From IMG/VR virus record IMGVR_UViG_3300011335_000131, positions 1-26,046 of that record: a stretch of DNA of 26,046 nt. One strand, given 5' to 3'. The notes under the pieces are model-generated. The model saw only the letters and a program-made list of their open reading frames with translations. It was not told the DNA's origin and made no database searches. The stretch comes from a virus (taxonomy: Duplodnaviria; Caudoviricetes). Numbering within the stretch: the first letter of the stretch is position 1; each line of letters starts with the position of its first letter. Below are positions 876-8,333 of this stretch, piece after piece. A program made the translations under genes and the position numbers.

Positions 876-1067
876 ATGCGATATCCTAAAAACTTTGCAA
901 AATTGACATCACTACAACAAGAGCAATGGTTGGTTGCTAAACTAATTGAACTCCACAACTTAGAACAAGAAATTAAAAACACCTTAGGCAAAATAAGAGG
1001 TGGCGAGAAACTTATATTTAAAGAAATAGATAGACCAGATTTAGCTTTATTAAAAGATGAAGATTAA
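876..1067 (+). CDS. Hypothetical protein (MRYPKNF..., 63 aa)
   Basis: ATG at 876 directly follows the upstream stop, so it is preferred over the track start at 816. Confidence 0.7.
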   Translation: MRYPKNFAKLTSLQQEQWLVAKLIELHNLEQEIKNTLGKIRGGEKLIFKEIDRPDLALLKDED

Positions 1068-1326
1068 AATTATATATAAGAAATTAGGAAGGGAACAAGC
1101 GCACGGCATAGCTGAAAGCGATGGTATTATATATATTGACCCAAGATTAAAGGGGAAAAAAATGCTTGAGATACTCCTACACGAGTTGATGCACCTCCAA
1201 AATCCATTGGATGATGAAGAAACGATTATTGAGAAAAGTGTAACTTTATGTAAGATTCTCTGGAAAGAAGGTTATAGGAGGGTTGATAATTCTAATGATA
1301 CACCATTGCAAGATGGTTCTAAATAG
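1057..1326 (+). CDS. Small HExxH zinc metallopeptidase-like protein
   Basis: IYIDPRL...ILLHELMH motif, with a downstream Glu pair (DDEE). Confidence 0.7.
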   Translation: MKIKIIYKKLGREQAHGIAESDGIIYIDPRLKGKKMLEILLHELMHLQNPLDDEETIIEKSVTLCKILWKEGYRRVDNSNDTPLQDGSK

Positions 1327-1342
1327 TTGTTCGTTCATAGTT

Positions 1343-1370
1343 CCCCATCCCTAAAAAGGTGGGGTTTTTT
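1343..1370 (+). terminator. Intrinsic terminator 1
   Basis: CCCCATC/GGTGGGG stem followed by T6, 16 nt after the stop codon. Confidence 0.8.
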
Positions 1371-1373
1371 ATA

Positions 1374-1381
1374 TATCTTTG
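1374..1381 (+). promoter_or_regulatory. Bacteroidota-type -7 promoter element driving a candidate small RNA
   Basis: TATCTTTG fits TAnnTTTG; there is no ORF before the next terminator. Confidence 0.6.
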
Positions 1382-1384
1382 GCT

Positions 1385-1440
1385 TTCATATTGGTTTAAC
1401 TTAGGTTTAGCCCCCATTTAGTCTTATTTGGGGGTTTTTT
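1385..1440 (+). ncRNA. Candidate ~55-nt antisense small RNA
   Basis: Bounded by a promoter element and a terminator. Its 5' part is complementary to the start regions at 1548-1560 and 3303-3314. Confidence 0.55.
1411..1440 (+). terminator. Intrinsic terminator 2
   Basis: CCCCCA/TGGGGG stem followed by T6. Confidence 0.75.
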
Positions 1441-1497: not shown

Positions 1498-1531
1498 TTT
1501 GATAAAGTTATAAGGTTTTACCCTATCTTTG
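1498..1531 (+). promoter_or_regulatory. Early promoter (-33 TTTG, -7 TATCTTTG)
   Basis: TTTG at 1498-1501 and TATCTTTG at 1524-1531 (22-nt spacing, slightly long), upstream of the first early ORF. Confidence 0.7.
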
Positions 1532-1555
1532 AATCCTAAACCAAAACAAACCAAT

Positions 1556-1777
1556 ATGAATCAGCAAGAAACTGCTCATTTTTTAATTAAGCAAATGAGC
1601 CAATACACAACAAGTGTAACAAAAAAAATGACCTTTGATAACGCAAAAGAATGTGCTTTAATTTGTGCCTGTGAAGTACGAGCGCAATACGAATTAGAAC
1701 ACGATGCAAAACTATTTTTATTTTGGGATGAAGTAGTTAGAATTATTAGATCAATGAAATTAGAAATTAAAAACTAA
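1556..1777 (+). CDS. Hypothetical early protein (MNQQETAH...)
   Basis: ATG at 1556 follows an A-rich leader; the track start at 1529 lies inside the promoter. Resembles ORF 7647-7853. Confidence 0.75.
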   Translation: MNQQETAHFLIKQMSQYTTSVTKKMTFDNAKECALICACEVRAQYELEHDAKLFLFWDEVVRIIRSMKLEIKN

Positions 1778-1780
1778 ACT

Positions 1781-1909
1781 ATGAACAAGTTAAAAACACC
1801 ACAACAAAAGGCAAACGAACGCTACCAAGCCGAATCAATCAAACCTATGTATGCATTTATCATTGTATGCATTGCATTTTTAATTACTGCAATCCTTCAA
1901 AACATTTAG
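1781..1909 (+). CDS. 42-aa protein with a C-terminal transmembrane helix
   Basis: Manual translation MNKLKTPQQKANERYQAESIKPMYAFIIVCIAFLITAILQNI; tightly packed between neighbours. Confidence 0.7.
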   Translation: MNKLKTPQQKANERYQAESIKPMYAFIIVCIAFLITAILQNI

Positions 1910-1910
1910 T

Positions 1911-2051
1911 ATGAAAAACATAAGAGAAAAACCTATTAGGATAAGAATACCAAGATTTTTTATACCAGAAGATATTGCAAGAAAAGCAAGAGGTATAGTT
2001 AAAAATGATAATGTTATTAAAAAATTAAATCAAATAGCTAAAAACAAATAA
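1911..2051 (+). CDS. 46-aa basic hypothetical protein
   Basis: Manual translation MKNIREKPIRIRIPRFF...IAKNK; fills the gap exactly. Confidence 0.55.
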   Translation: MKNIREKPIRIRIPRFFIPEDIARKARGIVKNDNVIKKLNQIAKNK

Positions 2052-2054
2052 CCC

Positions 2055-2285
2055 ATGAAAACACCAATGCAAGAACTATTAGAGTACATTAAAACTGCTC
2101 ACACCTTTACCTTCCTTCCTGAACAATTAGCTAAAACTATTGAGGAAAAATATTTGCCAATGGAAAAAGCTGATTTAAGAAATGCCTTTGATAATGGCGA
2201 AATAAACGTATGGAATAGCAAAAGAGATGAAGGATTTGAATTTGAAGGAGGCATTGATTATTACAACAAAACTTATAAAAACTAA
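2055..2285 (+). CDS. Hypothetical protein (MKTPMQEL...YYNKTY type)
   Basis: ORF track; resembles ORF 7423-7626. Confidence 0.75.
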   Translation: MKTPMQELLEYIKTAHTFTFLPEQLAKTIEEKYLPMEKADLRNAFDNGEINVWNSKRDEGFEFEGGIDYYNKTYKN

Positions 2286-2288
2286 CCT

Positions 2289-2456
2289 ATGAACGCAATT
2301 GAAACCCTTATTTACACATTAGAAACACAATTAAAGACAATGCCAAGTGGCTATGTAAAAGAAACTGTAACCGCCTGTAAGGAATTAGCTGAAGGCATAA
2401 AAGCAATTTATGAAAACCCTAATAACGACATTAGTAACCAACCAAATCAAGACTAA
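2289..2456 (+). CDS. 55-aa hypothetical protein
   Basis: Manual translation MNAIETLIYTLETQLKTMPSGYVKETVTACKELAEGIKAIYEN... Confidence 0.65.
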   Translation: MNAIETLIYTLETQLKTMPSGYVKETVTACKELAEGIKAIYENPNNDISNQPNQD

Positions 2457-2628
2457 CCTACAAACCGAAGCCGACTCCAAAGGCATAACCTTAAGTAAGT
2501 TGGTTTACAAAATCCTAAAACAATATGAGCAAACTAATCTACCAAGAGAAACAACTAAAGTTGCACAAAAGAGCAACAATACTACTCCAGCTACTAAAGG
2601 AAGCACAAGGAAGGCAAAATCTATTTGA
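2410..2628 (+). CDS. Probable ribbon-helix-helix DNA-binding protein
   Basis: Strand-helix-G-turn-helix pattern LITTLV..IKTNLQTEADSKGITLSKLVYKIL; the tail overlaps the next gene. Confidence 0.55.
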   Translation: MKTLITTLVTNQIKTNLQTEADSKGITLSKLVYKILKQYEQTNLPRETTKVAQKSNNTTPATKGSTRKAKSI

Positions 2629-2821
2629 GGCTGACCTTGCAGAATGGAGGCGAGGATTGGATGATACAAGAACAATGATTAGCGAAGAAGATTTACTAAT
2701 TAAGATTGCACGAATGAATGATGTGCAACGTAGAATCCTTAAAAGCTACCATTTTCTAATCCTTGACTTATATACATTAACGGAGGAGTTTATGCTCCCA
2801 ATTAACCTTTTACATTTCTAA
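2525..2821 (+). CDS. Hypothetical helical protein
   Basis: ORF track; TAATG coupling to the next gene. Confidence 0.7.
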   Translation: MSKLIYQEKQLKLHKRATILLQLLKEAQGRQNLFEADLAEWRRGLDDTRTMISEEDLLIKIARMNDVQRRILKSYHFLILDLYTLTEEFMLPINLLHF

Positions 2822-3258
2822 TGAGAGAAGTACATAAAACCTATATGGCAGAACTTGAAATAGAGGTTTTGCGAGATAAGAACAAAGAATTGAAAAAAGA
2901 AATAAACAGGCTTAAAGACCTATTAGACCAACATTTAAACATAAAAACAACAAGAATGAGCAAAGAAGAACAAAAAGAGTACGCAATTGAAATAGCTGAA
3001 AAAGTGTGCAATTACTACCAGATTAAGTACGGACAAATGATGTCCAAATATAGAGGCGAGGAAGTTACTTTAGCAAGACAAATGACAATGTATTTGACTA
3101 AGGAAAAAACGAATTTAAACGGCGAGGAAATAGCACAAATCTTCAATAGAGATAGGACAACAGTTTTACATTCAATCTCAAAGATTAGAGGACAATTGTC
3201 AAATAAGTTCGATGATACCATAAAAAAGGACGTTTTCAACTTAAATGTGCTTGTTTAA
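2821..3258 (+). CDS. Coiled-coil + DnaA C-terminal (domain IV) HTH protein
   Basis: ARQMTMYL...EIAQIFNRDRTTVLHSISKI resembles the DnaA domain IV signature (RQ.AMYL...IG..F.RDHTTV.H). Confidence 0.8.
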   Translation: MREVHKTYMAELEIEVLRDKNKELKKEINRLKDLLDQHLNIKTTRMSKEEQKEYAIEIAEKVCNYYQIKYGQMMSKYRGEEVTLARQMTMYLTKEKTNLNGEEIAQIFNRDRTTVLHSISKIRGQLSNKFDDTIKKDVFNLNVLV

Positions 3259-3309
3259 TTTGGTTATTAACACCAAAGTACTTAATTTTAAACTTTAAAA
3301 CCAACCAAT

Positions 3310-4026
3310 ATGAACGAACAACAACTGGCTAAAAAGCCACAACTTTCGTACACGAAAGACCAAGTAGAGTTAGTAAAATCGCAGATTGCTCCAGAGGCAA
3401 CAGTTGATGAACTAAAGCTATTTCTTTACCAAGCACAACGCACAGGATTAGATGCGTTATCAAGGCAGATTTATTGCATCCACAGGAACGTTAAAACGCA
3501 AAACGGATGGAGCAAAAAAATGACCATTCAAACAAGTATTGACGGCTTCCGAGTAATCGCTGAACGTAGCGGTAACTATGGTGGACAAAGCGAACCAATC
3601 TTTGTAGAACAAGATGGCAAGTTAGTTTCTTGCAAGGTTTCAGTATTTAGATTTCACGGCGATACAAGGTATGAAGCAGCCGTTGGAGTAGCTTATTGGG
3701 ATGAATATTGCCAAAGAACAAACGATGGCAAACCAATGGGTTTATGGGCAAAGATGCCACATACAATGTTAAGCAAGGTTGCAGAAGCATTAGCTTTAAG
3801 AAAGGCTTACCCACAAGATTTAAGCGGTCTTTACACTGGCGATGAAATGGCTCAAAGCGATGACAAACCAGCCTATATTAAAACGCACGATAATCTTGAT
3901 GACTTGGAATTAGCTATTGATTTATGTATAAGCACAAATGAATTGGCTGAACTTTACACATTGAATCAGGAACTTGCAACTAAAGATGTAACTAAATTAT
4001 TTACCAAGAAAAAAGAATCTTTATGA
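3310..4026 (+). CDS. bet: Single-strand annealing recombinase, Bet/RecT family
   Basis: GLDALSRQIY, IQTSIDGFRVIAERSG and WAKMPHTMLSKVAEALALRKAYP motifs. Confidence 0.9.
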   Translation: MNEQQLAKKPQLSYTKDQVELVKSQIAPEATVDELKLFLYQAQRTGLDALSRQIYCIHRNVKTQNGWSKKMTIQTSIDGFRVIAERSGNYGGQSEPIFVEQDGKLVSCKVSVFRFHGDTRYEAAVGVAYWDEYCQRTNDGKPMGLWAKMPHTMLSKVAEALALRKAYPQDLSGLYTGDEMAQSDDKPAYIKTHDNLDDLELAIDLCISTNELAELYTLNQELATKDVTKLFTKKKESL

Positions 4027-4268
4027 CACCATTAAGCAGATTATGGGATTTAAGAGAGGAAGTTAAGTTTTGGAATTACAAAGTAGAAACAAGCTATCCT
4101 CAAAATGCAGCAGAAATGATTTATAAATTAAATGCTGCCAAGTATAAACTTAAATTACATAAACAACTACACTTTCCAGAGTTATTAGACCAACCTAAAA
4201 GGGATTATGTTCCTTATCAAATGTTGGCTGATAAATTTGAAGTATTTGAAAACTATTTAAACGACTAA
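4023..4268 (+). CDS. Hypothetical protein
   Basis: ORF track; ATGA overlap with bet. Confidence 0.7.
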   Translation: MTPLSRLWDLREEVKFWNYKVETSYPQNAAEMIYKLNAAKYKLKLHKQLHFPELLDQPKRDYVPYQMLADKFEVFENYLND

Positions 4269-4270
4269 TT

Positions 4271-4441
4271 ATGCCTTATTCAACGTGCTGCGGAGCATAT
4301 ACCGATATGGATGAAATTGGAATTTGTCCTGATTGTTTAGAACATTGCGATTGGGAAGAAGAAGACGAAGAAGAATTAGAACAAGATGCACAAACGGAAA
4401 CACAAATAGAACAAGAACAAATTAATAAACACGAAAACTAA
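4271..4441 (+). CDS. 56-aa Cys-rich zinc-finger-like protein with an acidic tail
   Basis: Manual translation MPYSTCCGAYTDMDEIGICPDCLEHCDWEEEDEEELEQD... Confidence 0.7.
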   Translation: MPYSTCCGAYTDMDEIGICPDCLEHCDWEEEDEEELEQDAQTETQIEQEQINKHEN

Positions 4442-4446
4442 AAACA

Positions 4447-4929
4447 ATGATTCAAATTAATAATTGTGCTTTATACAAGCAGTATTTAGGTTATAGAGTT
4501 TATTCAGATGGAAAGATATTTAGTCTTACAAGAAATAAATTTCTACAACCATATGATGATGGAAATGGCTATCTTAATGTTAAATTAAGAATAGACAACA
4601 AGTCAAAAAATGTTAAAGTGCATAGAATTTTAGCTATGTTATTTATACCAAATATTGACAATAAAGAGCAAGTGAATCACATTGATGGCAATAAATATAA
4701 TAATAACATCAATAATTTAGAGTGGTGTAGCAGGTCATATAATATGAAACACGCTTATAAATTAGGACTTAAGAAAAAAGATATGTCTAAAATAGTAATT
4801 GATTTAGATACTGGAATATTTTATGATTCAGCAAAAGATGCTGCATTAGCAAAAAATATCAATCACAAGACATTAAGAGTTAAATTAGCAGGATTTTATA
4901 AAAATAACACAACAATAGTTTACATTTAA
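4447..4929 (+). CDS. Free-standing HNH homing endonuclease (HNH_3 type, NUMOD1-like C-terminus)
   Basis: VHRILA..F, VNHIDGNKYNN...NLEW...N..HA, and C-terminal TGIFYDSAKDAA. Confidence 0.9.
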   Translation: MIQINNCALYKQYLGYRVYSDGKIFSLTRNKFLQPYDDGNGYLNVKLRIDNKSKNVKVHRILAMLFIPNIDNKEQVNHIDGNKYNNNINNLEWCSRSYNMKHAYKLGLKKKDMSKIVIDLDTGIFYDSAKDAALAKNINHKTLRVKLAGFYKNNTTIVYI

Positions 4930-4939
4930 AACAACAATT

Positions 4940-5233
4940 ATGATAGTAATTAACATCGAACAAGAGAAAATTGAGTGGAAACCAGTACAAACAAAAAATG
5001 GCTTAAAGCATTATGCAACATTGGCACTTGACTTTTTGAAAGAGCCAGACGAAAGAGGTCAAACTCACGCAGTTTGGAATAATCAATCAGCTGAAGCCAG
5101 AGCCGAAAAATCAAAGAAAAACTATTGTGGCAGAGGTAAGCAAGTATCTTACAATGCACCAACTGCTAAAAAAGAATTTGCAGTAAACCAACAAGAAGCA
5201 GAACCACATTCAACTGATGACCTACCATTTTAG
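4940..5233 (+). CDS. Probable single-stranded DNA-binding protein
   Basis: Acidic C-terminal DDLPF tail typical of SSBs; located near bet. Confidence 0.6.
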   Translation: MIVINIEQEKIEWKPVQTKNGLKHYATLALDFLKEPDERGQTHAVWNNQSAEARAEKSKKNYCGRGKQVSYNAPTAKKEFAVNQQEAEPHSTDDLPF

Positions 5234-5287
5234 TAAACAACCCCTCGTTGGGCGATAACGTTAAGCGCAAATTTAAAACCTACAATT

Positions 5288-5521
5288 ATGAGCAAACCAA
5301 TATTTATAGTAAGATTTCCAGATACTGCAAAAGAAGAACATTTAAATTTTGCAGCAGAATCATTAGCAAGACAAGGTTTTTATGATGATTATCATTGTTT
5401 AGTTGTAAAAGACCAATTTACAGGAGGTGAAATAAAATTTGAATGTTTTAATGCACCACATACTGAAATAGAATTTAAAGAACTACAAGAAAGAGTTATA
5501 ACATTACTAAAAACAAAATAA
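5288..5521 (+). CDS. Hypothetical protein
   Basis: ORF track; A-rich leader. Confidence 0.7.
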   Translation: MSKPIFIVRFPDTAKEEHLNFAAESLARQGFYDDYHCLVVKDQFTGGEIKFECFNAPHTEIEFKELQERVITLLKTK

Positions 5522-5522
5522 T

Positions 5523-5717
5523 ATGAGCCAAAACCAACAAATCAAATCTTATTTAGAAAAAGGTAGAAAATTAACCCCTATTGATGCCTTAAACAAGTTC
5601 GGATGCTTTAGATTAGCAGCACGAATTGCTGACCTAAGAAACGATGGTATGAACATAAAAACCACTATTGTTAAGCTAAAGAATAAGAAACAAATAGCAC
5701 AATATTCGGTTAATTGA
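5523..5717 (+). CDS. Winged helix-turn-helix protein
   Basis: LTPIDALNKFGCFRLAARIADLRNDGMNI is a common phage wHTH motif. Confidence 0.8.
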   Translation: MSQNQQIKSYLEKGRKLTPIDALNKFGCFRLAARIADLRNDGMNIKTTIVKLKNKKQIAQYSVN

Positions 5718-5718
5718 T

Positions 5719-5726
5719 TATATTTG
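5719..5726 (+). promoter_or_regulatory. -7 promoter element for the replication genes
   Basis: TATATTTG immediately after the wHTH stop codon. Confidence 0.65.
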
Positions 5727-5729
5727 CAA

Positions 5730-5807
5730 TAGAATGTACGAGATTCTAATACAAAACTTTTTGCCCAAGGAGGCGTTGGTACTCGTACTACCAGCAAATC
5801 TGCGGGC
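5730..5807 (+). ncRNA. Structured 5' leader with complementary hairpin loops (candidate cis-regulatory RNA)
   Basis: Hairpins TAGAAT[GTACGAG]ATTCTA and GTTGGTA[CTCGTAC]TACCAGC; the two loops are reverse complements. Confidence 0.6.
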
Positions 5808-5817
5808 TATTTTATTT

Positions 5818-6552
5818 ATGAAAAGTAATAGTTACTATTTTAGCCACGATTACAACTCGGCTAATGATACCAAGATTCTATTTTTACGGCATCAACTTGG
5901 TATGGAAGGTTACGGCATTTATTGGTTTTTAATTGAGCAATTGGCTAATGCTGGAGGTAAATTGCCATTAGATTTAATACCTGTACTTGCTATGCAGATG
6001 CAAACTACCGATGTAAAGGTTAATGGGGTAGTACATAATTTCAATTTATTTTCTATTGAATCTGGCGAGTTTTACTCGGAAAGGTTGCAAAATCATTTAG
6101 CTTTAAGGCAAAATTTAAGTGAAAAGGGTAAATTAGGTGCTGCTAATAGATGGAAAAATGGGGGGGCTATTGGGGATGCCATTGGGGAGGGTAATGCAAA
6201 GGAAAGAAAAGGAAAGGAAAGTAAAGTAAAAGAAACTAAAGTAAAGGTTAGTAGGCAAACGCTATTTAGTGAAACGCAATTTTTAGATATAGAAATATTT
6301 AAAGCAGCTTTTATTGGAACTCAATATGAAGAAGCTAATTTTGCATACTACCACGAAGTAATTAAAAATTGGTCAGATTCTAAAGGCGAAAAGAAACTTG
6401 ATTGGATAGCCACCGCAAAAAATTGGATGGCACGAGATTTAAAAGAAGGAAAATTTGTTCACATAAACTATAAACCAAATGCAACAGGAATTAACAACAA
6501 TAGTAAACTCACTTACGCTGAACGAGAAGCAATCAAAAGAAATAATTTATAA
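5818..6552 (+). CDS. Replication initiator-like protein (DUF4373/Lin1244-type N-terminus)
   Basis: YFSHDYNSANDTKI..L...GMEGYGIYW.LIE motif, GKLGAANRW linker and C-terminal DWIATAKNW. The start is moved from 5734 to the ATG at 5818. Confidence 0.75.
   Translation: MKSNSYYFSHDYNSANDTKILFLRHQLGMEGYGIYWFLIEQLANAGGKLPLDLIPVLAMQMQTTDVKVNGVVHNFNLFSIESGEFYSERLQNHLALRQNLSEKGKLGAANRWKNGGAIGDAIGEGNAKERKGKESKVKETKVKVSRQTLFSETQFLDIEIFKAAFIGTQYEEANFAYYHEVIKNWSDSKGEKKLDWIATAKNWMARDLKEGKFVHINYKPNATGINNNSKLTYAEREAIKRNNL
6158..6247 (+). repeat. Iteron-like repeats plus purine-rich pentamer tract (candidate origin)
   Basis: GCTATTGGGGAT/GCCATTGGGGAG tandem, then AAAGG/AAAGT repeats, inside the initiator gene. 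Confidence 0.45.
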
Positions 6553-7204
6553 ACTATCTGACCCTTACGAATTAAAAGTTTATGAGGCTCAACAAACATT
6601 AATAATTGGTAGATGCTCAAGAATAGAAGTTAAAGAGCATTTAAAGACCTGTTTGCAACTTAGCGGTTTACAATCACCAATAAGTCAAGATTTTGAGTTT
6701 ATAGTTGATTTTGTAATTAATAATTATGGTAATTATAAGTTAAAAGAATTGGGTATAGCTTTCGAATTATATGCTTCAAATAGACTTGAGGTAAGTCAAC
6801 ATATAATTTTTAACCCACGATTCTTTGGTGAAGTAATGGCAGCTTATAAGCCAATTTCAATACAAGTAAGACAAAAGACTTATGTTGAGCCACAACCAGT
6901 AGAAATACCTAAATTACAAGATGATGAAGTTATTAAGGCTTTGTACGAAAATTGGGAGAAATCTGCTAAAAGAGGTTGGGAGTTGCTAAATACTATGGCT
7001 TTTGACATACTATGGAAGCGAAAGGAACTAAATAAGGAGAATCTAAGTCAAGACAAAGCAGACCAGATAAAGAACAAGATAATTGCTCATTACAAGGTAA
7101 CTGCTAAAACACCAAAAGACTTGGAGAAATTAAATAATGAATTATTTATCAAAAATGAGTGCAAAAGATATACTTTGTACCTATTTTTACAAAACAAATT
7201 ATAA
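6479..7204 (+). CDS. Hypothetical protein, positional candidate for helicase loader
   Basis: 241-aa ORF overlapping the initiator end. No P-loop seen; function is inferred from position only. Confidence 0.6.
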   Translation: MQQELTTIVNSLTLNEKQSKEIIYKLSDPYELKVYEAQQTLIIGRCSRIEVKEHLKTCLQLSGLQSPISQDFEFIVDFVINNYGNYKLKELGIAFELYASNRLEVSQHIIFNPRFFGEVMAAYKPISIQVRQKTYVEPQPVEIPKLQDDEVIKALYENWEKSAKRGWELLNTMAFDILWKRKELNKENLSQDKADQIKNKIIAHYKVTAKTPKDLEKLNNELFIKNECKRYTLYLFLQNKL

Positions 7205-7264
7205 CCACCTCAAGAAATTAATATTTAATAACAAGATAGTGATTTGGGGAACTTGGGGTGGTTT

Positions 7265-7345
7265 ATTAGAAATATAATTCTAATTAAGCAAAAAACAACA
7301 CTAAAAAAAACAATTATTTAACCAAATTGGAAATATAATTCTAAT
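7265..7345. repeat. Two 20-bp palindromic direct repeats
   Basis: ATTAGAAATATAATTCTAAT (7265-7284) and ATTGGAAATATAATTCTAAT (7326-7345). Confidence 0.8.
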
Positions 7346-7422
7346 ACAAAAATCAGTATTTATACTTAACATTTATTAATATAAATAAACCATTTTTACA
7401 TTCAAACCAAAACAAATAAATT

Positions 7423-7626
7423 ATGGAAACGCCATTACAAAATTTAAAGTATTATTTCAGAAATGATGATACTATTACCAAAGAAGAATTAAATAATGCA
7501 ATTAATGAATTGTATGATAACGAAAGGTCAGCAATAATGGATGCAGCTAAGAAATTTGCAAATACTCTTGGTGTTGAAGATGAAGATATTTTAGACTATT
7601 ACAATGACCTTTACAAAACCAATTAA
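7423..7626 (+). CDS. Hypothetical acidic protein
   Basis: ORF track. Confidence 0.75.
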   Translation: METPLQNLKYYFRNDDTITKEELNNAINELYDNERSAIMDAAKKFANTLGVEDEDILDYYNDLYKTN

Positions 7627-7646
7627 AAAACCAAAACAAATAAAAT

Positions 7647-7853
7647 ATGAAACCAAAAGAAAAAGCACAAGAATTAGTAGATAAGTATTCTAATTATACA
7701 ACTGATTGGGATTACCTAATAAAAGCTAAACTATGCACCTTAATAGCAGTAGATGAGATATTAAATGCTTTACCTCCATTTGATTATGGATTAGAATTTG
7801 TAGCTAAAATAGATTATTGGACAGAAGTTAAAACTGAAATAGAAAACTTATAA
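7647..7853 (+). CDS. Hypothetical protein (PKEKA.EL...AK.C.LIAVDEI...YW.EV type)
   Basis: ORF track. Confidence 0.8.
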   Translation: MKPKEKAQELVDKYSNYTTDWDYLIKAKLCTLIAVDEILNALPPFDYGLEFVAKIDYWTEVKTEIENL

Positions 7854-7869
7854 CCAAAACAAATAACCT

Positions 7870-8202
7870 ATGAAACTATATACAGAAGAACAAGTAAAAT
7901 TTATTTACAATTCTTATGGATTCAATCTTGATCAAAATGGTTGTCATGAAATTGATGAAGATAAGTACTTTGAGCAAAAACTTAAAGAATTAACACCAAT
8001 AGAACTACCAAGTAATGTAGAAGTAGGTAAAATAGTATTAGGAGATTCTCCAATTATGGAACATAGAGATTCAGGATATTTCGCCGCAGGTGCTATGAAA
8101 TATAACAAATGGATGAAAGAACAAATACTTAACCAAAATAGAATAACTATAAAAGAAACAAAAAGGTCAATAGAAGGTATTGGATTAAATAAAAACCTAT
8201 GA
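7870..8202 (+). CDS. Hypothetical protein (MKLYTEEQV...LTPIELPS type)
   Basis: ORF track; the C-terminus may be a read-through extension. Confidence 0.75.
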   Translation: MKLYTEEQVKFIYNSYGFNLDQNGCHEIDEDKYFEQKLKELTPIELPSNVEVGKIVLGDSPIMEHRDSGYFAAGAMKYNKWMKEQILNQNRITIKETKRSIEGIGLNKNL

Positions 8203-8333
8203 AACAACTAACATTTATTTACGAACTATTAAAGTTTATGCTGATTAGCGTTCCATTAGCTTGTTGCATTTATTTAACTGCACACTTATACTTTGAATTA
8301 AAACGATTCATTAATGACAGGAATAGACAATAA
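8199..8333 (+). CDS. 44-aa membrane protein
   Basis: Manual translation MKQLTFIYELLKFMLISVPLACCIYLTAHLYFELKRFINDRNRQ; ATGA overlap with the upstream ORF. Confidence 0.65.
   Translation: MKQLTFIYELLKFMLISVPLACCIYLTAHLYFELKRFINDRNRQ

Follow-up and report, generated by a model that had tools for sequence, protein, structure and literature searches.

A conserved, ORF-less promoter-seed-terminator unit in tailed phages and its predicted pairing with the start of the phage recombinase gene

At the junction between two gene blocks of a small tailed phage, a short stretch of DNA opens with a promoter-like box, closes with a terminator and encloses no open reading frame, which raises the question of what such a unit makes and on what its product would act. 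The window (the whole stretch analysed, 26,046 nucleotides of IMG/VR record IMGVR_UViG_3300011335_000131) amounts to 26 kb of the phage at a CheckV completeness of 90%, with all sizeable genes on one strand. It begins with a metallophosphoesterase gene and an 89-aa gene, followed by the junction and then by early genes that include those for a DnaA-C-domain protein, Bet/RecT (3310), an HTH_39 protein (5523), a replication initiator and NinG; the terminase, portal and capsid genes are placed after the early block. The DnaA-like protein (2821–3258) is a stand-alone C-terminal (Bac_DnaA_C) domain. The capsid finds cultured counterparts, at about 30%, only in Cellulophaga phi10:1 and Flavobacterium 11b, the terminase matches mostly phages of Bacteroides, Flavobacterium and Phocaeicola, and TAnnTTTG boxes precede many genes in the window, so a Bacteroidota host is likely. 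A pattern scan of bacterial genomes, covering about half of the collection, gave at least 120 matches; none of the 120 listed had a −7 box before the seed, and hence no prophage copy or host was found. Nor was an integrase found among the window ORFs scanned or among 66 of the 80 family representatives from array-bearing loci; a resident state is therefore not evident, and a role in the maintenance of lysogeny is not favoured.

The unit at 1374–1440 (unit B, Table 1) has a −7 box and a terminator exactly where the initial annotation had drawn them, and no ORF lies between the two. According to PMC9723704, the box occupies positions −12 to −5; if that holds here, the conservation seen among relatives begins at the predicted +1 region, after three variable bases, and transcription by host sigma-A would start at about 1385–1386. 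The TAnnTTTG box is found in 127 of 127 parsed copies of unit B, a count for which the parser demanded it. The RNA from 1385 to 1440 is predicted to fold into a 24-nt open arm, in which the U/G-rich seed is unpaired, followed by the terminator, and the unit likely yields an RNA of about 55 nt without a protein product. Of 24 sequencing runs retrieved in the search for such a transcript, the eight compared with the window all consisted of assembled contigs that may derive from DNA. Immediately upstream lies a second seed and terminator, unit A, whose seed falls in the 3′ UTR of the preceding gene in the window; in two lineages, G3 and G3b, this unit has a TAnnTTTG box of its own. The loop motifs of the two terminators recur across lineages while the stems vary, the loop of unit A (1343–1364) being A-rich and that of unit B (1411–1434) T-rich, and the latter is similar in Flavobacterium phage 11b. 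A generic unit detector run on the window returned only unit B and one other site, at 5719, where the leader of the gene for the replication initiator (5818) contains a −7 box and, after it, a strong hairpin with a T run (5719–5810), a possible attenuator.

Table 1. Coordinates of the junction array, its predicted targets and associated features (positions in the window unless a locus is given)
Feature	Position	Strand	Remarks
89-aa ORF, last gene 5′ of the array	1057..1326	+	weak phrog_87 metalloprotease match
Unit A seed	1327..1342	+	14/14 complement to 3309-3322 (bet start)
Terminator A	1343..1370	+	7-bp stem and T run; sequence, predicted fold
Unit B predicted sigma-A −7 box	1374..1381	+	TAnnTTTG
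Unit B seed 1	1385..1397	+	conserved core 1385-1394; antisense to leader and AUG
Unit B seed 2	1401..1409	+	antisense to AAACC-type 5′ part of target leaders
Terminator B	1411..1440	+	hairpin 1411-1434 and T run to 1440; sequence, predicted fold
Predicted −7 box of early operon	1524..1531	+	sequence
Predicted target 1 (first early ORF, 1556-1777): leader with its 5′ end, and AUG	1536..1560	+	13 bp + 7 bp duplex, −22 kcal/mol
Promoter-like TAATTTTA box before bet	3283..3290	+	19 nt before bet, TTTG 20 nt further upstream; function inferred
Predicted main target: start of bet/RecT (ORF 3310-4026)	3303..3322	+	unit B 3303-3314, unit A 3309-3322
HTH_39 gene	5523..5717	+	top predicted unit-A target in relatives; weak in window (−7.3)
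phrog_19042 slot proteins	L328:10878-11489, L385:7042-7656, L425:4057-4677, L355:5455-6075		replace RecT/ERF

The complementarities from which an antisense function was first proposed are real: bases 1385–1397 are the exact reverse complement of 1548–1560, bases 1404–1410 complement 1536–1542, and the seed pairs 12/12 with the bet start at 3303–3314. Match length by itself is nonetheless weak evidence: when the seed was shuffled with its dinucleotides preserved, 101 of 2000 versions still matched the window exactly over 13 nt, and 50 of 2000 gave two matches of 12 nt. The spacer that provides the full 13-nt match is present in 4 of 73 close-lineage junctions, the conserved core being 10 nt, and the length of the match is mostly this genome's luck. 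The feature that is not due to chance is the position of the matches at starts. With the first ATG of an ORF counted as its start, and with pairing energies that ignore target structure, the best two of 46 annotated starts for unit B are 1556 (−22.3 kcal/mol) and bet at 3310 (−18.5), both of which outscore all 528 non-start ATG windows; the best score was reached by none of 150 shuffled seeds and the second-best by one of 150, so that the proposed check on enrichment at start codons came out in favour of the unit. Two further targets had been named. Their matches are exact (9/9 at 7644–7652 for ORF 7647, 8/8 at 2521–2528 for ORF 2525), but both score −10.7, a chance-level energy equalled by 69 of the 528 non-start windows, and the 9-mer of the ORF 7647 match also occurs at one late-gene start and two non-start places; ORF 7647 is thus unsupported as a target, and ORF 2525 fares little better in relatives, as described below. 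The start of ORF 9591 scored −17.1 in the window and was rejected as a target on a family mean of −6.7 in relatives.

Relatives were gathered in four viral scans anchored on the 89-aa protein and proteins related to it. Counting the window, these gave 203 loci, with 171 distinct junctions of at least 150 nt. The tandem seed and terminator array described for this junction recurs, with two or more units in 128 of the 171, one unit in 4 and none in 39. Within the close lineage, a set of 73 junctions selected on seed 2 (which is accordingly present in 73/73), the 10-nt core is intact in 72, while the 3–5 bases between box and core take 11 forms and the spacer takes 5. The stem of terminator B occurs as 22 distinct sequences, 21 of which pair fully; changes in the stem are compensated and pairing is kept, and the seed is better conserved than the stem. 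The array is missing from the junction in at least seven relatives whose early operon carries ERF, and is thus dispensable; in these relatives the ERF gene lacks an upstream box, as judged by eye. Other elements turn up at the same place: one locus (L069:8315–8400) has an extra promoter and terminator unit of unrelated sequence between units A and B, and a group without the array (L344, L346–L350, L356) has a long-loop hairpin directly after the 89-aa gene and before a gene for a protein of about 408 aa, with a conserved G/U-rich loop and a T tail, which is possibly another structured RNA.

Could the array be no more than a double terminator that insulates early from late transcription, its seed being a decayed inverted leader or a by-product of AT-rich starts? 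The near-chance length of the exact match and the absence of the array from some relatives would fit, as would the prevalence of AAAC-type leaders, which occur at 17 of 23 early starts (early ORFs 1556–8314) against 5 of 23 late ones. The minus-strand frame that begins at the CAT, however, runs to six codons in the window, varies in sequence and length among copies, and has no CAT in 15 of 127 copies of unit B, which disfavours the inverted gene leader raised as an alternative in the initial annotation; a conserved minus-strand mini-ORF was rejected on the same ground, the frame not being conserved. The greater conservation of the seed relative to the stem also speaks against this explanation, and shared ancestry does not account for lineage-specific complementarity to one distant gene. 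We regard it as highly improbable, and it is largely refuted by the lineage matrix that follows.

For co-variation we used the loci at which both units are present and the sequence continues for at least 2.4 kb beyond them. Of these 99, 96 hold a gene in the recombinase slot, yielding 54 distinct seed/target pairs from seven lineages. Every unit-B seed was scored against each downstream ORF start from −25 to +15 (mean 20.5 starts per locus). The recombinase-slot start ranked first in 35 of the 54 pairs and first or second in 49, where chance predicts 2.8 and 5.6; the corresponding means were 2.0 and 4.0 in 20 plain shuffle sets, and 2.9 and 6.4 (maxima 7 and 13) in 20 sets in which the CAT was kept fixed. 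Seeds from foreign lineages placed the slot start first in 14%, and first or second in 23%, of 2080 comparisons. In a 7 × 7 lineage matrix, own pairing amounted to −5.1 kcal/mol after double-centring and the true lineage assignment was the best of 5040 permutations (p = 1/5040), three of the seven lineages being single loci and two lineage labels having drawn on unit-B features. Among the 17 other gene families that could be tested, one (the 98-aa family of ORF 2525) reached 57/5040 and the rest were not significant. The longest exact complement averaged 9.1 nt for own targets versus 6.5 nt for foreign ones. The seed follows its target base by base on both sides of the AUG, at CCAAT-ATGAA in G1, AGTCT-ATG or CATTAGTT-ATG in G2, ACT-ATGCAA in G3, TAGT-ATGATT with a G.U pair in G4 and CGTT-ATGAAC in G5, so that the changed second codons of G3 (ATG CAA) and G4 (ATG ATT) are mirrored in the seed, while the loop between the two paired halves ranges from 0 to about 10 nt.

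At the level of predicted pairing, the unit-B seed co-varies with the recombinase-slot start of its own phage, and this slot gene is the one predicted target that tracks the seed in all lineages; both conservation and seed/target co-variation, for which an alignment of related junctions had been suggested, were found. The signal is uneven. The recombinase start comes no higher than third in G3 (ranks 3, 5, 6 and 8), certain seeds from other lineages equal the pairing of own seeds (those of G3b and G5 on G2), and a strand-asymmetry test on the 54 pairs did not favour the predicted strands, with 18 better and 33 worse. A promoter-like TAnnTTTA box lies 18–33 nt upstream of the slot gene in 45 of 54 pairs (45 nt were searched), and the gene therefore probably has a separate short-leader mRNA, with which pairing would occur in trans.

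The same data bear on whether the matches might be DNA sites for a phage protein, that is, copies of an operator in inverted orientation that co-evolve with the protein. The seed and its two main targets do sit just after promoter-like boxes, and small HTH/RHH-like genes are present. Such an operator would be a strange one: the sites are non-palindromic, their halves are separated by distances that differ by as much as about 10 nt, the match tracks start codons and altered second codons and includes a G.U position in G4, and one copy is enclosed, without an ORF, by a terminator whose changes are compensated. We find this explanation most improbable.

The gene that fills the recombinase slot is itself exchanged. 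The slot holds RecT, ERF or phrog_19042, which have three unrelated N-terminal domains and share a C-terminal region of about 60 aa, and the tracking of the slot by the seed holds across all three. The phrog_19042 protein (about 205 aa) has no Pfam match and no cultured-phage match, and is probably a third ssDNA-annealing family, to which, if the pairing is as predicted, the seed itself points. Complementarity that is kept across unrelated target genes would constitute rare natural compensatory evidence.

The first early gene, which had been the leading proposed target, is better described as a predicted secondary one. Its pairing over leader and AUG is strong in the window, but it is among the top two in only 27 of the 50 pairs from the close lineage, and in 6 of 10 pairs in G4 and 4 of 8 in G2; its leader stays similar whichever gene family follows. 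Unit A may carry a second, less well resolved seed, aimed at HTH_39 and in this lineage also at bet. The HTH_39 start ranked first for unit A in 27 of 57 pairs and in the top two in 41, compared with 1–5 and 5–10 in eight shuffle sets, and the test of own against foreign lineages was not significant for this unit (424 and 443 of 5040). Unit A has two alleles in the close lineage: at 37 of 40 loci with the first, the bet start matches, and at 19 of 20 with the second, it does not, an association that can be explained by linkage.

No Rfam family accounts for unit B. The search gave nothing above the gathering score in the window or in nine relative loci, and the weak matches on 1250–1650 (the best being rdlD, 20.9 of 50 bits) were discarded as reflecting the terminator. 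The FopS model RF04319 (gathering score 56) found at best 10.5 and 6.9 bits in the window, neither at unit B, with no gathering-level match in the nine relative loci, and the C4 model had no match to E 10 on 1250–1650 or to E 1 on the window. We found no description of this RNA in the literature, where supplementary motif tables (e.g. PMC8040213) and subscription papers could contain one. The earlier statement that no described family exists agrees with these searches, though the design is that of FopS and GibS of Bacteroides thetaiotaomicron, for which PMC11697453 and PMC7366714 describe a sigma-A TAnnTTTG promoter, a single-stranded 5′ seed and an intrinsic terminator. As reported for those RNAs, pairing here is predicted at or beside start codons with two adjacent seeds (R1/R2 in GibS), and intergenic and 3′-UTR-derived forms both occur. 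One FopS copy in a phage is also described. Unlike FopS and GibS, whose described targets are host PUL/susC mRNAs, unit B has as its predicted targets the phage's own recombinase and first early gene, and its seed is lineage-specific where FopS is described with one conserved R1. Unit B is, on its sequence, a FopS/GibS-like design that Rfam does not class as FopS, and its lack of an ORF, predicted accessible seed and co-varying target pairing are those of a trans-encoded base-pairing sRNA.

There are phage precedents as well. P22 sar is made from the strand opposite its target and is fully complementary to it. Both sar and lambda OOP are described as short phage RNAs that lower an early regulator by pairing (PMC12197685; bioRxiv 2024.10.31.621285), which is the kind of effect suggested here; unlike OOP, which is likewise reported to lie opposite its target with full complementarity, unit B is on the same strand as its two predicted targets, 0.15 and 1.9 kb away, and pairs partially. 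The c4 RNA of P1 and P7 is presented in PMC12197685 as a trans-acting antisense RNA over the ribosome-binding region of a phage mRNA whose specificity varies among related phages, much as proposed for unit B, though its seeds lie in loops instead of an open 5′ arm and its target is an antirepressor instead of the recombinase slot, and we see no sign of a prophage system here. PreS of lambda and VpdS of VP882 (PMC12197685; bioRxiv 2024.10.31.621285) resemble it as trans-acting phage sRNAs with a short seed, and differ in being described as Hfq-dependent and mainly host-directed.

Our preferred reading, which we hold with fair confidence, is that the conserved unit makes a trans-acting sRNA of about 55 nt that pairs over the recombinase and first early starts and blocks ribosome loading. 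Host sigma-A would transcribe the RNA, whose open arm would, on both the recombinase mRNA and the first early mRNA, pair with the AUG and with the A-rich positions that serve initiation. A block of translation is suggested by analogy with FopS and GibS and by the extent of the duplex, which would cover the A-rich positions −3, −6 and −11 to −15 that PMC7366714 reports for initiation; the same source describes pairing of GibS at start codons, and PMC11697453 reports that FopS (FopS-10) blocks translation in vitro with compensatory rescue. Since host-type promoters appear to serve the RNA as well as its targets, the RNA would most likely act as a delayed brake, building up until the output of early recombination protein is capped. 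The idea of a multi-target sRNA that shuts off early genes thus survives for bet and the first early start, and is too wide for early genes in general.

In P4, pairing of the CI RNA with a nascent leader leads to premature termination. A similar action on nascent leaders, with termination or decay in place of a ribosome block, would agree with the position of seed 2 over the predicted first bases of the early mRNA, and an untranslated mRNA could itself terminate or decay. We consider it very unlikely, given that the co-varying bases centre on the AUG and that no terminator-like site was found just downstream of either target on the plus strand. It is also conceivable, if unlikely, that the main job of the RNA is directed outward, against the recombinase or first early mRNAs of co-infecting relatives or against A-rich host starts, giving RNA-based exclusion in a carrier-like state. 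Two AUG registers, suited to different recombinase cassettes, are present in several seeds, one G2 seed occurs with both RecT and phrog_19042 cassettes, the rate at which foreign seeds rank the slot gene first exceeds that of shuffles (about 4–5%), and the heteroimmunity attributed to c4 of P1 and P7 in PMC12197685 offers a precedent. Own-lineage pairing is clearly stronger than foreign pairing, however, and the scans for integrase leave no resident state evident. A translational brake on the phage's own recombinase is the reading we carry forward.

If it is correct, a phage sRNA would control the recombinase of its own genome in a phylum without Shine-Dalgarno initiation or obvious Hfq (the latter as stated for Bacteroides in PMC7366714), at a time when described phage sRNAs come almost all from phages of Proteobacteria and the string 'Bacteroid' is absent from the 2025 review searched. 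We offer more tentatively, as possible rather than probable, the generalisation that many Bacteroidota phages time or gate their early programme by arrays of tiny anti-start-codon RNAs that replace a protein repressor, the recombinase-slot RNA being re-tuned with each swap of RecT, ERF or the third family. The compatibility of seed and leader would then constrain module exchange, and there might be RNA-coded exclusion between related phages.

How far the design extends can be gauged from other phages. Viral sequences were scanned for an anti-AUG 10-mer directly after a −7 box, which gave at least 120 matches, with about 190 estimated. A terminator lay within about 65 nt in 24 of the 120 matches listed, compared with 3 of 217 control boxes; two of these 24 face real opposite-strand starts, and the remainder comprises at least 22 loci, among which 11 different seeds occur, in phages that bear hardly any similarity to the window. 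The unrelated carriers are L436, L438, L466, L471, L496, L498, L520, L530, L541 and L555, plus duplicates, and their units lie in some cases directly before early operons and in others before structural genes. At the 13 unrelated loci of at least 4 kb, some top matches fell at nearby same-strand starts and others were not convincing; the picture is mixed, in that these units appear to have anti-AUG seeds whose targets are only candidates. A blastn search of 1000–1700 against cultured phages returned only three matches, at E 0.7, and in Cellulophaga phi10:1 no such unit was seen by eye at one junction (first 30 kb). The generic detector did find a unit of the same design in a cultured phage, Flavobacterium phage 11b (L434), at 30326–30398, at the same phosphoesterase/early junction and before the early promoter. 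The erf start is not a top match of this unit (−13.6); of 700 ATG windows, the one that scores best contains a promoter-proximal AUG (28738) that opens only five codons as deposited. With a unit of this design in a cultured phage and short, defined duplexes, the proposal would be directly testable. Phage 11b has, in addition, a second apparently ORF-less stretch from box to terminator, at 28595–28699, after the lysis genes.
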